Source: Eledone cirrhosa
Taxonomy: Eukaryota
Direction of reading: 5' to 3'
Length of the DNA stretch: 64,000 bases
Assembly: GCA_964016885.1 (NCBI GenBank)
Contig: OZ024748.1
Span: 14,756,001 to 14,820,000 of the forward strand
Shown: piece after piece, positions 6,501 to 59,690 of the stretch
Layout: each line of letters begins with the position of its first letter
Position numbering within the stretch: the first letter of the stretch is position 1
Made by a program: the position numbers and the translations under genes
Notes under the pieces: generated by a model
Database searches by the model: none
Told to the model about the DNA's origin: nothing
The model's input: the letters and a program-made list of their open reading frames with translations, nothing else

Positions 6501-6662
6501 AGGGTCGGATGCCAAGCTTTGACGCATGGAGTTACGGCACTTGCCATTCTGAGTTCAAATCCCGCCGAGGTTAACTTTGCCTTTCATCCTTACGGGGTCG
6601 ATAAAATAAAGTACCAGTAATGCACTGGGTAATTGCTGGCCTTGTGCCAATAGTAGAAACAA
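6501..6662 (+). mobile_element. Meta-domain-like SINE, 5'-truncated
   Basis: B box gagttcaaatccc; gcctttcatccttacggggtcgataaaataaagtaccag; attattata on both sides. Confidence 0.85.
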
Positions 6663-6814
6663 TTATTATAATCCTAATATTATAAGTGAGTAAAGAAATT
6701 ATTCCTATTTCTTTTTATTATTAGAATTGTTTTAATTCATCACAATTGTTGCTTTGGAAATATTTACAAGTAAAATCCAGAGCTATCCAATAAATGTCCA
6801 TTAAAAAATGTCTT

Positions 6815-12628: not shown

Positions 12629-12814
12629 AGGGCGGTGGATTGGCAGTATCGGTAGAAGGTCGGACGCCATGTTTTCCAGTATAGTTACGTCCCTTTACGA
12701 TCTGAGTTCAAATCCCGCCGAGGTTGACTTTGCCTTTCATCCTTACGGGTTCGATAAAATAAAGTACCAGTAATGCACTGGGTAATTGCTGGCCTTGTGC
12801 CTAAAGTAGAAACA
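12629..12814 (+). mobile_element. Full-length tRNA-derived Meta-domain-like SINE with 17-bp TSD
   Basis: A-box-like tggcagtatcggtaga, B box gagttcaaatccc, core gcctttcatccttacgggttcgataaaataaagtaccag; TSD attatatttatttctct at 12612-12628 and 12815-12831. Confidence 0.9.
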
Positions 12815-13459
12815 ATTATATTTATTTCTCTGTCAAAATAGTTGGTCTACTCAAGATTTTAATTATTTTCTTTGGCTACAAATATAAAACTAAATCGACA
12901 AAAAGACCAACAACAACAGCCACACTGACATCACCATTAGTAACAACAACAAAAAATAACTGTATTATGTAACAACCCAAGAACACTACTAACTGCAAAA
13001 ACAACAGATACAACCAATAACAACACCACCACTACAACACCACCACTACCACCACCACTACAACACCACCACCACCACCACCACAACAACACTATTATGT
13101 AACAATCCAAGAACACTACAACCTGCAACAACAACACCGTCACAAATGGCAACAACACTGACATCCCTCACCGCCATTAATAAAAAAAAAATAAATAAAC
13201 AAATGTATTATATAACAACCCAACAACAGTACTTACTGCAAAAACAACAGACACATCCAATAACAACACAGACTACAACACCACTACAACAACAACAACA
13301 CTATTTTGTAACAATCCAAGGTAAATTAAAACTCTTTGTATTCAGTTGTACCATTAACACTATAAACACTCGCTTCAGCTCTACCTTGGAGACAACATAG
13401 TGTATTAAGTCTTCTGTAGTCTTGTAAGTTACAAGGTAATTCCCACTAGTGTTGATTTA

Positions 13460-14672: not shown

Positions 14673-16923
14673 TTAAACTTTTCTGCAATAGCTTGCCAAT
14701 AATTTTTCTTATCCAAGAAGATTTATAGAGCAACTGGTGACCATAGCTGTCTTAGAGAAGTCTTGATTGATTCTGTCACTTCTGATCAGCCATAACAGTT
14801 GTTGATTCACAAGATCAATATTAATGCTGCTAAAGGAAAATAGAAAAATGCAATGCTCTAATATATTATTAGATTTAACCCTTTTGGTACCAAACAACTG
14901 AAACTTCAGTTTGTTTTATGATAGAAAATTATTTGTTTAAGGCATTTATATTTATCTAAAAACATTCTAACATTAATTTATGTAAGATTCTTTGTTAATT
15001 TCTGTCCCAAACACCATTTCGACAATGAGAATGTTTGTTATATTACTAAATATCTCTCAATTCTTGATTAATTTCAAAATAATTTGAATATCACAGGCAG
15101 TGTCTTTCATTAGAAATATGGTAACAAAGGAGTTTAAAGCTTTGATTCTGTCACTACTAATCAACCTCAACGGTCGTTGACTCACAAGATCAATACTAAT
15201 ACAGCTGAGAGGGGTAGTGTAAGAAAAGTTCAATGTGCTAATGATTTATTACTTTTAACCATTTTCATACCAACCAACCCAAAATTAGCTTTGGTCCTCT
15301 GAAACAAAGCAACTCATTTTTGCGACCAGAAATCGATCGACAAAATCACAGGCCACATTCACTTACCAAGTAGGGTGGAGCTTGTCAAATCAGACCAAGG
15401 AAACAATGTTTCCATTGATCTTTTCATTGCTAATACTATCTACCAGTTGCAACTCCTAACAATGGAAAGAAAAGACCAATGCAAACATTGTTTCCTTGGT
15501 CCAGTTTGACAAGCTTGTTTTAAAATCTTCCAACATAATTTATAAAAGAACCATGTGTTAAATTACTTTCTTAGTAATGACATAATTAATTATTTTAGTA
15601 AATTCCCCTCCAAATCCTACATTAATTAATTGAAATAGATTGTATTTCATTAGAAATACAGTCATGGAAGAGATAAAATTCTTGGCAATGGCTAGCCAAT
15701 AATTTTTTTCCCTTTTCCTAGCAAATTTATAGAGCAACTTCGATAAGTCTTGATTGATTCTGCCACTTCCTATCAGCCTCAACGGCTGTTGACTCTCGGA
15801 ATCAATATTATTACAGCTAGGGATGGGAAGGGAGAGAGAAAAAATGCAATGCTGCGATGTTTTATTAGATTTAAACCTGCTTTTAACACGTGATAGATAG
15901 ACATCATTTTGGTTCAACACGATTTTGAATTTAAAAATCTATAATAATCCAATTACTTGCCTCAAAGTAATGGCATTCATTAAAGGCTTCGATGGATGGA
16001 CATTTCGATTTTTTTTATTTAGAATGTTAGCATGATTAACATTTATTTGAACACACAAACCCTAAATCCAAAGCTACAGTTGTTATATTGTTCGATATTA
16101 CGAACACAGTAGAAAATAATTAGCCCTTTCATTATCATATTTCTAAGGAAAGACACTGCTTCCGATTTTCAAATAATTTTGAAAATAATGCACTGGGTAA
16201 TTGCTGGCCTTGTGCCTAAAGTAGAAACAATTATTATTATTATTGTCACTATTATTTGTTTCTATTCATTGTGTGCTGTACTGCATTACCAAAAACAGCT
16301 CCGTGTGCCTAGGATAGCTGCAGTGGGTTTTTAATGATATTGTTGTTATTGTATTGAATGTTCTCTTCGTAATATGTGAGGAGGCCTAGCAGTACTACTT
16401 TCTGTGTGTTGTGTATATAAGTCCTGGGGTTCTAGTTATGTATCAGACTCTCCCTCTCTGTTTATTTTTTTATTATTCCCAGAGTACCTGTTATTATTGG
16501 AATTTTTTCCACTTTCATCATCCACATTTGGGTTATTTCTATTTCTAGAATATTTGGATAGTTTCTCCATTTCTTTGATAGAGATAATGCCGTCTGTGGG
16601 GACTGATATGTCAAATGTTGAAGTTATCGTTATTATTAATATTATTATTTTCATTATTCCTCGTTATATATTTACTATTAACCTTTTCAAAGGTGTACAT
16701 CCTTGAAAAGGATTGCCAAAATAACCTGAAAGGGCTAGCATTCGCAATCGGATTTTACCTTCCTTTATACCCACTCTGCTTCTGTCCATGCATATAATAC
16801 TACCCTGAATTGTGGTCACCCTAGTTTCAACACTGCAGACTTTATATACCTTGAGCTGGTCGATCATGAAACGTGTGTCACATGTGAATAAATATAATGT
16901 TATGTTGATACTTTGTACCTAAT

Positions 16924-16925
<2 letters not shown>

Positions 16926-16960
<35 letters not shown>

Positions 16961-17091
16961 GGCTCATGATTCTTTTCCTATTACCCACTCTACTAGCCTA
17001 AGTATTGAGTACTCTGGTGTGTTATGGTCCACCTGGTTTATTACATTTCGTTCATTTTTTATATATACACACATATATATATATATACACA

Positions 17092-30000: not shown

Positions 30001-30670
30001 GTATAAACAATGTTTATTTTTTTCCATCTAGTGTATAGATGTAAAGATTTTTCTGACTTCCTATTCTTGAACATTCAACGTAAAACTGACCAGGTGTAAA
30101 CTGGCAAACGAAAATGAATAACAGATACCATTGCAAGGTTTGAAGGAAGTTAACTAACTCACTTTACTTTATCCACTCACTAATAAATCTTATTTATTTG
30201 TCCATGGATTAATTCTCATCTCATTCCTGATGTCTTCACTACAATAACATCATTAGTTGACTAATTTAACTGTTTTATAGTCAAATATTTAAAATTCACC
30301 AGGCACTTTAGAGAATGATTAATGACATACACACATATGTGTGTGTAATATTGAACAATCGAAATAAAACAAAAGTCAAAGATAGGTTCTTATCTTCAAA
30401 TTTTGTTTCATTTTCATTGTTCAATACATACATCATCATCATCATCGTTTAACGTCCATCTTCCACGCTTGCATGGGTTTGGACGGGAATTTTCCCACTT
30501 GACATATATATATATATATAAATGACTCTATAGCTCGAAAAGAATCTTTGAGGGAACCTTATATGATGAAAGCCTACAACAAAAACTATATATCTCACTG
30601 AAACTATCTCTTCAAGACTGCATTGAGTTCTAACAATGTTATAATCCCTATAATAAACAGGGGGATACCA

Positions 30671-30708
<38 letters not shown>

Positions 30709-31238
30709 AAGGAAGGGAGGTAAGGAACCAGGTGGACCATAATGCACCAGAGTACTCAATACTATGGGTAGTAGAGTGGGTAATAGCTAGTTCTGAACTA
30801 GCTGTCGAAACGGCCGGAGCTCAGCCATCGGGGACCTAACTCTCTTCATATATATATATATATATCATCATCATTTTCATCATTTCATTTTACGTCCGCT
30901 TTTCCCTGCTTGAAAACAATGCATGGTTTCAAATTAAGGTAATGACCATTTCACAGATGGGTGGTTCAGGATCTATTTAAATGTTATAGACCCAACTTCA
31001 GGCCAATTGCTTATCAATATATACACCCTCCCTTAGCATAGAGTGCAGATTTTGTCACCTTATGCAGTAAACAACAAATCTACTGAACCACCTATCATTT
31101 TAATATATAAGTTTATCCCAGATTCAATCGGGGGTAACCACAGTAAGTAAGGTAGTCAATACATAGCAGAGTATAAATATTTAATATAGAAATGGCTTCT
31201 ACTGGACTAGAACTGTTTCATTCGGGAGAAATCATCAG

Positions 31239-33015: not shown

Positions 33016-33207
33016 GGCCAGTTGATTGGCAGTAATTGGTAGAGCATTGGACAACATGCTTTGCAGCATAGAGTTACGACCCTTTATGATTTGAGTTCAA
33101 ATCCCGCTGAGGTTAGCTTTGCCTTTCATCCTTACGGGGTCGATAAAATAAAGTACGAGTAATGCACTGGGTAATTGCTGGCCTTGTGCCAAAAGTAGAA
33201 ACAATTA
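33016..33207 (+). mobile_element. Meta-domain-like SINE
   Basis: Same head, core and 3' end as 12629-12814. Confidence 0.88.
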
Positions 33208-34349
33208 TTAGGAAAGTTATGGGAACCACATTTCATTTGGTGGAGCAATGAACTAGTGAAAACAAGAAATTAATGTGTCACATGTTAAGTATTTCCTGAT
33301 CCTCTAATTCTGTTTATTTAACCCTTTTGATACCAATACATGAATCTGCACGACCTAATGTTTTAGGTTGTTGACTTTACAATCGTAATGTTGTTAGTTT
33401 GATTCCTGGACAGGGTACTGCATTGTGATCTTGAGCAAAACACTTTATTTCGTGTTTCTCCAGTACACTCAGTTAAGAGTGAGTACAGGCAGTTAATCCT
33501 GTGATAGACCAATGTAGTGTCTAGGGAGTGTCTTGTGCTCTCAGTCACTTTCTGCCATAGAAACCAGGGATGAGTTCCAGTGTAATGAGCCTTCAGCTTA
33601 GAACAGACCTTGACTATAACCAACACACCCAAATCTGCCTCAGGTTCTATGAAACTAAACTATCCATTTTATAGGGTTCCTATGTGAATTAAAATCTTTC
33701 AACATAATTTTATCAGAAAAGTTTAATAATGCAATGATTAATAATTATAGTAAATCCATAAAAAAATCATACATTAATTAATTTGAAACACATGAATGTG
33801 TGGAAAAAGGGACATAAAAACGATGATGATGATGTGTTACATTAAAAATATGGTAATGGAATGTTTAAGGTTAGAGAAGCTAAGCAGAAATTTGTGGTAC
33901 AGATCATGTCCTCTTCTGATAGGGTGTAATGTACAGCAGTATGGCAGATATATGTATTAGTATATCCTTTCATGTCTATGTTATACTGGTGGGTAGATCA
34001 GATAAAGATGTTATCATATCTCTCCACGTGTTTACTATGGTGTATGTATGGCAGATAACAGTATTATTTTAATGAGTTGGTGCAGTCAATAATCTGATTC
34101 TGAAGCAGGTTAAATATAAAGTAAGTCTTTGGGGAATACTAATAGATGATTATAATTTGTTTGTGTTGTTACTGAATTCTTTTAAGCTGCTTACTCATGG
34201 GTGTTGAGTTCGAATCCATGGCAAGATATGTGTTGTGATTCTATCTAGGCATGATACCTAATCCTACATTACTTCAGTTGCTGGAGATAAAAATAATATT
34301 TTATCAAAGATGAGAGTTACTTATTACATGTTTAACCCTTTGATTACTA

Positions 34350-58290: not shown

Positions 58291-59311
58291 CGATCGACTT
58301 TCGTCAAATTGGACCAAGGAAGCAATGTTTTCGTTGGTCTTTCCAGTTGCTAGTACTATCTATCGGTCGCAACTCCAGGTAGGCAGAGCAACATGTAATA
58401 AAGTCTCTTGTTCAAGGACATAACGCATCGCCTGGTCCAGGAATCGTACTCACAACCTCAAGATTGTGAATCCAATTATCTAACCACTCAGCCACACGGC
58501 TTCACTCTCAGCCACACGCCTATATATATTTGGTGGAGCATAAACACAGGCAGACACACACACACACCTATATACAGAGAGAGGGAGAGGTTGGGGCAGA
58601 ATTTATTAAATCTATACATGTGTGTGTATGATGATTGTAAGTTTGTTGTATTTATGGCTCACATCTGTATAGGTTTAGCTGCCTGCCTCATATGGGGTTC
58701 CACAGGGGTTTGAAATGAAGGTTTGTTAATTTCATTGAAGTGCCAAATATAATCAATACTGTTTAGTGAATTGGAATAACATTTATTGAACATTGGGTCT
58801 GTTTGTATTTCTACTCTGAGTTTCTTAGACTCATTTTTTTCTGGTTATGTCAAGAATAGGATAAGAAACTCCAACTAACAAATCAACTGGACTCAATTCT
58901 GACAAAATACATTTACATATATATAAGAATAATACTATTTATAGTTATGTATATACTATAAACAACTATAAACAGGAAAGGTCAGTAATTTATTACTACC
59001 TTATAACCAGTAAGAGAAATAGCTCAATGTAAGAACATCAGTTGTTTTACAGAGCAGGAAAATTTTTTTATTTATTTACATATATATATATATATACATA
59101 TGTATACATATATACGTATGTGTGCATGTGTGTATATATATATATATATATGATGATGATTACATATACAGGAAGAGTTTCTAGCTATAGAAACCAAGCC
59201 AAAATAAATTCTGTATTTGCAAGAAATGAACATCTGATCTGGTTTCTTCGATAAGAGTGCAACTCGTCTAACCCAAGCTAGCATGGAAAAACGGACATTA
59301 AATGATTATGA

Positions 59312-59351
<40 letters not shown>

Positions 59352-59356
<5 letters not shown>

Positions 59357-59550
59357 AACCAGTAAGACCCCGACAGCTGAGCTCAAGCCGTTTCGACGGC
59401 TAATTCTGGACTAATTCCAGAATTAGCCGTCGAAACGGCTTGAGCTCAGCTGTCGGGGTCTTACTGGTTCCTATTACCCACTCTACTACCTCAAGTATTG
59501 AGTACTTTGGTGCGTTATGGTCCACCTGGTTCCTTACCACATTTCCTTCG

Positions 59551-59595
<45 letters not shown>

Positions 59596-59690
59596 TATAT
59601 ACATACACAAATATATATATATATATGTATATATATATAACGAAGGAAATGTGGTAAGGAACCAGGTGGACCATAACGCACCAAAGTACT
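59352..59690. repeat. Double fold-back cassette carrying the 3' half of a hammerhead; family also at 16957-17060 and 30703-30848
   Basis: Perfect 59-bp arms at 59352-59410 and 59416-59474; second 52-bp inverted pair at 59501-59552 and 59639-59690 around (TA)n. Confidence 0.9.

Follow-up and report, generated by a model that had tools for sequence, protein, structure and literature searches.

Head-to-head 3′-end pieces of a Penelope-like element in Eledone cirrhosa probably record paired cDNAs that ran off an RNA 5′ end within a hammerhead loop

The locus raises the question of why an insertion in a TA repeat of Eledone cirrhosa turns back on itself beside a hammerhead ribozyme. The window, i.e., the whole stretch of DNA analysed (64,000 nt; assembly GCA_964016885.1, contig OZ024748.1, positions 14,756,001 to 14,820,000 of the forward strand), contains a perfect inverted repeat with 59-bp arms and a 5-nt loop at 59352–59474. 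It is followed by GAAAC, stem III, GUC, and GGGG, and (TA)n lies on both flanks. The initial annotation, which had described this palindrome correctly, placed hammerhead stem II at its centre and proposed that ribozyme structure dictated where reverse transcription ended or snapped back. Judged from the genome sequence, the locus comprises head-to-head 3′-end pieces of a Hydra-clade Penelope-like element (PLE) in a TA repeat, and the pieces likely derive from two target-primed cDNAs that ran off an RNA 5′ end, itself likely to lie inside loop II.

The coordinates of the features are given in Table 1. Element positions were counted as the distance from the tail end, position 1 being the last base (window 59553). 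The hammerhead part of the locus contained the stem II 3′ strand, GAAA, stem III with a palindromic loop, GUC, and the stem I 3′ strand, and the hammerhead 5′ half was absent. The tail was defined as the stretch bounded by two reverse transcriptase (RT) start sites, as in the accessible text of Frangieh et al. (2024, PMC11167929). The tail-less and tailed arms reached positions 142 and 138, a difference of about 4 nt; the former would represent a cDNA primed at the −80 site that ended at the wall described below, and the latter a cDNA primed at the tail end. For the copy at 30703–30848, an inverted tail had been thought to join onto stem II; instead, a tail-less arm that reached 141 nt abutted a tailed arm truncated at 83 nt, and the small hairpin of this copy was mostly the junction plus a near-palindrome of its subfamily.

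Table 1. Coordinates of the locus and of two related copies in the window.
Feature	Window positions	Strand
(TA)n target, left side	59316..59353	.
Tail-less arm (putative −80-primed cDNA), covering positions 80 to 142 as counted from the tail end	59352..59414	-
One extra base at the head-to-head junction	59415..59415	.
Tailed arm, comprising the element's final 138 nt (98.6% to L105)	59416..59553	+
Type I hammerhead 3′ half, predicted cut between 59454 and 59455	59422..59459	+
One-sided 79-nt PLE tail, between two putative RT start sites	59475..59553	+
(TA)n target, right side	59552..59637	.
Separate 53-nt tail fragment in the same microsatellite, orientation opposite to the tailed arm	59638..59690	-
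Copy of an older subfamily, with a tailed arm at 30705-30786 (-) that reaches 83 and a tail-less arm from 30788 (+) that reaches 141	30705..30848	
Copy with a single arm, from a third subfamily; its first base is C17, one base 5′ of the predicted cut	16959..17058	+

The exact 22-letter tail end occurred 23,084 times (14,085 + 8,999) in the 3.0-Gb genome, and the tail-end pieces were mostly stubs. The 40 best-scored genome matches were 99–100% identical and nearly all carried an inverted arm. Long copies were reached through recurring sequence upstream of the stubs. The near-full copies L105, L106, L107, and L111 encode an RT together with a region of GIY-YIG type at the C-terminus, and the unit length was ~3,523 nt (L105). 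The single ORF of 717 aa, translated from L107, contained the RT motifs FDI..Y and YRDDG and, near the C-terminus, VIY..YIG, as read from the alignment. Its RWR, DKT, CNC-x5-C, CNLC, and CKH motifs matched the Hydra-clade set RW(R/K), DKT, CxCX5C, CxxC, and CxH given in section 11 of PMC8557442 (Craig et al., 2021). A Pfam search of two element proteins gave no matches, and 822 relatives were found at about 40% identity. Among the listed matches, the tail ends ran into TA repeats, as expected for (TA)n insertion, and the insertions had the architecture of EN+ PLEs, namely a partial tandem, an inverted 5′-truncated copy, and a one-sided tail. At the level of its motifs and insertion habit, the parent is a Hydra-clade PLE. 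The Naiad clade was rejected because the endonuclease is C-terminal.

The C-terminal EN+ PLEs of the Hydra clade (e.g., Hydra-1_Obim), as far as the accessible parts of PMC8557442 describe them, share the single ORF, the motif set, the (TA)n target, the hammerhead near the 3′ end, and all three traits of insertion architecture. The inverted-copy-plus-tail architecture itself is thus already known. The present family differs in its unit of 3.5 kb (<3 kb in most families listed there), its tail of 79 nt (30–40 there), and its 23,084 tail ends, mostly stubs. A non-autonomous MITE-like unit copied whole was rejected: the junctions varied from copy to copy, and the arms carried their own subfamily's bases. 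The identical tips that had suggested such a fixed unit were selected by the query, and the unbiased sample showed varied junctions. A non-LTR retrozyme, with tandem units each bearing a complete hammerhead, was also rejected, as the stubs hold the 3′ half alone; the 257-nt tandem in L120 likewise lacked the hammerhead 5′ half. The tail was joined directly to the 5′ leader at 378 exact junctions, some of them in four-unit arrays. Head-to-tail arrays of at least four units, spaced 3.53–3.54 kb, were observed at C1:91476607-91487254 and C1:437200356-437210969.

Full copies contained stem I and a UUGANAA core in which N is G, U or A. They also had a long stem II, a loop II of 31–33 nt, GAAA, a stem III of 5 bp whose loop is palindromic, and GUC. 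In these copies, the strand before GAAAC paired with a strand ~35 nt upstream. Because the natural stem II pairs across the 31–33-nt loop, the turn of the palindrome lies in loop II. The central hairpin of the stub is therefore not stem II, as had been annotated, but a junction product lying in loop II, and the stub retains the 3′ half of the hammerhead alone. A CUGANGA box upstream of the hairpin, which the initial annotation had predicted for full copies, was literally absent; the search for CUGANGA near GAAAC gave 48 matches, and those inspected were chance junction sequence. The core itself was present as the U3-A8 variant, and UUGANAA with a variable N7 was found in both element families. 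The features of a type I hammerhead were all found, i.e., three helices round the core, the 3–8 pair, G10.1-C11.1, GAAA, and a UH triplet. In 19 copies of the two families, 91.3% of 380 cells were paired. Three helix II pairs changed on both sides, which represents few independent events because the changes were mostly between the two families; helices I and III showed none.

The CUGANGA hammerhead was described as universal in the Hydra clade (PMC8557442), and this element family is thus a hammerhead variant, of a form that CUGANGA descriptors miss. The Hydra hammerheads in the accessible part of File S2 of that paper all have CUGANGA and a loop of ≤10 nt, in contrast to the U3-A8 core and 31–33-nt loop II here; the hammerhead of Hydra-1_oBim also differs in sequence. 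The Cercyon PLEs of Schistosoma (Cervera and de la Pena, 2014, PMC4209133) share the U3-A8 covariation, a long helix II whose 5′ end has an unpaired base, and a palindromic loop III. They differ from the present form, which has a full 5-bp helix III, a very long loop II, and a putative RNA start inside the loop. An Rfam scan of the window gave no hammerhead among the 150 of 286 matches listed, which were mostly microsatellite-driven miRNA matches. A 9-bp stem was also predicted (L107:5415-5515), in which tail positions −74 to −66 pair with positions +17 to +25 of the 5′ leader. It brackets the tail-end RT start site and can form at the tail-leader junction only; it was nearly invariant in the junction rows examined and thus gave no covariation evidence.

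The positions of arm ends were compared in 160 loci, comprising every tail match (152) within the initial 41.5 Mb of contig C1 and the next 8 matches, with none dropped and with possible segmental duplicates included (e.g., L232 and L237). An inverted tail-less arm was present in 120 of them. The ends were far from uniform: 177 of 280 arm ends fell within 14 nt, at 133–146 nt from the tail end and thus inside loop II, whereas 27 lay beyond 146. This zone is called the wall here. Its commonest exact start was A140 (33 of the 166 starts at 134–145). The claim that the ribozyme dictates the ends stood to the extent that breakpoints concentrated at the hammerhead and that a minor class began at its predicted cut (see below). 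The far end of the tail-less arm was fixed in place, at position 80 in 99 of 112 measured arms. In the RNA run X1, a small set of contigs, a single contig aligned, and it did so away from the wall. In the run X2, contig depth rose 14-fold across the wall; X2 may be the assembled sample, so that this step counters an assembly artefact and is not independent biology. In the older family, the 100 of 3,720 matches listed were read by eye and ended at the corresponding motif or a few bases beyond it; long parents exist. The upstream pseudo-LTR pieces of L396, L398, and L400 all ended at 221, which reflects either descent from a common master or a break in the alignment of a diverged subfamily.

The wall could mark a roadblock on a longer RNA or the 5′ end of the RNA. 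Under a structural stop, the RT would be halted by the folded hammerhead or by protein bound to the hairpin of loop II. This is in keeping with the covariation of stem II and with a pile-up of ends that begins immediately past the 3′ strand of stem II. In both families, and in most rows, the wall motif can serve as the 3′ strand of a weak hairpin (0.7 to 8 kcal/mol) within loop II, and the conservation of the motif may thus be structural. However, long templates were copied through this zone. Among the first 30 of the 378 tail-leader junctions, 19 had at least 840 nt of unit downstream, and the upstream piece passed the wall in 15, ended below 133 in four, and stopped at 133–146 in none, as against 87 stops and 14 passages in ordinary tailed arms (Fisher p = 2e-9, one four-row array counted once; the long-template rows were selected for molecules that had passed the wall once already). 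The four-unit tandem arrays and the scarcity of ends at the stronger stems I, II, and III also argue against a structural stop, which the initial annotation had favoured and which we regard as quite improbable.

In seven junction rows (six loci), a piece reaching 137–143 was preceded by 63–820 nt of 5′ leader and by another tail piece that ended at or before 143; L373 had three arm ends at 137–139. The row of L394 jumped at position 100, the cut site, and three of the 30 rows fitted neither class. The leader before the piece and the repeated wall end therefore indicated templates in which leader lay downstream of the tail and which each time had their end at the wall. Such templates would match the expectation for the 5′ end of the element RNA. 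As none of the 19 long templates stopped at the wall and template-jump products stopped there twice, the wall is likely the RNA 5′ end rather than a roadblock. A repeated 257-nt tandem mini-unit with an inverted arm, made of the last 143 nt and 114 nt of leader, was found at L120:2514-3170; it looks like repeated jumping or a small circle.

Such a 5′ end might also come from processing, by a 3′ splice site at the conserved yAG, a nuclease, or small-RNA cleavage, instead of from initiation. The wall motif resembles a splice acceptor, introns of the Drosophila virilis PLE overlap its promoter and hammerhead according to the accessible part of the source, and the signal of a cap-derived extra G was missing, with no enrichment before A144; before A140 it was ambiguous (G 15, C 14, and A 4 of 33) and confounded by the other arm. 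Yet the 160 copies contained no recurrent upstream exon, three of three sense-orientation joins checked lacked a GT donor, and the arms often included bases 5′ of the AG. A splice acceptor at the wall was rejected on the absence of a shared exon and of GT donors, and processing as a whole appeared very unlikely. T-runs from non-templated A occurred in only 4 of 87 wall copies. The wall motif resembles the arthropod initiator consensus. A TATA-like box was found 29 nt upstream of the wall in the young family; as a general feature it was rejected, being absent from the older family (family 2).

The arms themselves bear on whether one cDNA snapped back or two were joined. Of 120 pairs, 35 had a tail-less arm that extended further 5′ than the tailed arm by >5 nt, and in 26 the excess was >20 nt; the reverse was seen in 22 and 4, respectively. 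Plain snap-back, which had been proposed for the locus, is disfavoured because a folded-back cDNA cannot give a tail-less arm that reaches beyond the tailed arm, as it does by about 4 nt at 59352. A better fit is given by the head-to-head joining of two target-primed cDNAs. Ascertainment accounts for part of the skew, as a tail-less arm shortened by >60 nt vanishes, and within differences of 6–55 nt the asymmetry was balanced (19 vs. 21). Later deletions at palindrome centres could mimic the asymmetry or contribute to it.

Self-priming of one cDNA followed by asymmetric deletions at an unstable palindrome centre, under which the wall could still be the RNA end, was considered on these grounds. 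The arms shared subfamily bases at 209 of 219 diagnostic sites (67 loci without indels; 46% when shuffled), which indicated that both came from one RNA or one source subfamily and fits snap-back too. A long arm was often paired with a long arm (8 of 14), and short self-complementary words were used at junctions. In the rotifer Adineta vaga, PLEs with similar head-to-head inverted pLTRs, a palindromic junction, and an optional tail were explained by self-priming (Arkhipova et al., 2013, PMC3846280, in its accessible part), whereas the arm lengths here favour two primers. At least 35 of the 120 pairs would require a second event. The tailed arm of L184, moreover, ended at the wall and its tail-less arm ran 1091 nt, and in L107 a tail-less end with a long partial tandem stood against a 799-nt tailed arm. 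Snap-back also leaves the fixed −80 end unexplained; two primers account for it, because PMC11167929 shows two RT start sites bounding the tail, the second of which the −80 end matches. Self-priming with later deletions therefore appeared unlikely. Both arms were tailed at L129:1544-1715 (reaching 78 and 98), as if both primers had used the tail-end site. DNA from outside the element (~40–75 bp), duplicated in inverted orientation, was joined directly to wall-length arms at L041:1340-1515 and immediately ahead of the element at L048 (- strand). At L012:1440-1510, an 11-nt arm-end word occurred three times at the junction, which suggests repeated RT slippage or templated end-joining.

From the observed anatomy, the wall at 133–146 with its mode at A140, the fixed −80 end, and the parent, we infer the following steps. 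Transcription would start in the upstream pseudo-LTR, ~140 nt before the tail end, and give an RNA that has, of the hammerhead, just the 3′ half at its 5′ end; in D. virilis, an internal promoter starts Penelope transcription within the upstream pseudo-LTR (PMC2377424). The RT-endonuclease would nick both (TA)n strands and prime at two internal sites, the tail end and −80. The cDNAs would run off after ~140 and ~60 nt, lose or gain a few bases, and be end-joined; alternatively, one cDNA may jump to another RNA position and run off again. Hammerhead-cut RNAs would yield the minor class starting at GGGG. Long and tandem copies may come from multimeric or circular templates with no end at the wall, and a circular-template model was presented for the Cercyon PLEs (PMC4209133).

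The in vitro work on the Poseidon PLE of Anolis carolinensis (PMC11167929) offers the closest parallels for priming that we cite: both target strands were cleaved and extended, two internal RT start sites bounded the tail, the template needed sequence downstream of the start site, and the hammerhead was protein-assisted. The accessible main text of that paper mentions neither run-off stubs nor an account of head-to-head arms. A search of the literature outside subscription journals likewise gave no account of PLE run-off stubs or of two-primer head-to-head joining.

A minor class of copies starts exactly at the predicted hammerhead cut. Genome-wide, five A/T letters stood directly before GGGG 63 times and before CGGGG 23 times (p = 4e-14); the CGGGG control pools two positions upstream of the cut, and 12 of its 23 matches look like inverted-arm ends with a shared C. 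Pure TA joins at the cut site numbered 34 vs. 7 (by eye). CpG decay at that C was too rare in the sample to explain this excess, with 2 differences at site 100 in 67 loci. The class accounts for ~4% of copies (7 of 160 at 98–100). When the sample of 160 copies was taken by itself, the cut had 7 of the 41 starts that fell between 81 and 132 (p = 0.008 at the named site, 0.29 when any 3-nt window is allowed). The copy at 16957, which had been read as starting at the cleavage position, lies outside this class because it retains the C: it starts (T)C-GGG with C17, 5′ of the scissile bond, is 1–2 nt off, and falls in the control class. The accessible text of PMC11167929 states that no RNA-seq reads were found to end at the cut, in contrast to the genomic spike here.

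We also speculated, tentatively and with rather low expectation, that the transcript starts inside its own hammerhead and thereby splits it, so that the enzyme half at the 3′ end of the same RNA can complete the substrate half at the 5′ end. Cutting at both ends would give a circularised unit-length RNA as the sole source of long and tandem copies, uncut linear RNA would give the 140-nt head-to-head stubs, and 5′-cut RNA the 99-nt class. The split ribozyme would then act as a switch that makes retrotransposition either abortive or productive.

Published work names the replication cycle of PLEs and the role of their hammerheads as open questions (PMC8557442, PMC11167929, accessible parts). A family of >23,000 mostly young copies records cDNA start and stop points to the base and gives a testable clue to the movement of these poorly understood elements. 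If the two-primer run-off reading holds, it would offer genomic support for two-primer integration over self-priming, name a candidate RNA start, separate two template classes, and provide indirect in vivo evidence of cutting by a U3-A8 hammerhead. New here are the wall splitting a long-loop U3-A8 hammerhead, the long-template control against a structural stop, and the cut-site spike.

The repeat finder, when run on the window, was swamped by (TA)n. Pieces of ~50 nt with ~82% identity to the element 3′ UTR at −733 to −680 were observed at window positions 6621-6669, 12774-12828, 16189-16238, and 33163-33210, and are probably another repeat embedded in that 3′ UTR. Common SINE-like repeat fragments ending in (CAT)n adjoined the insertions at 30430-30500, 30866-30925, and 59251-59314.
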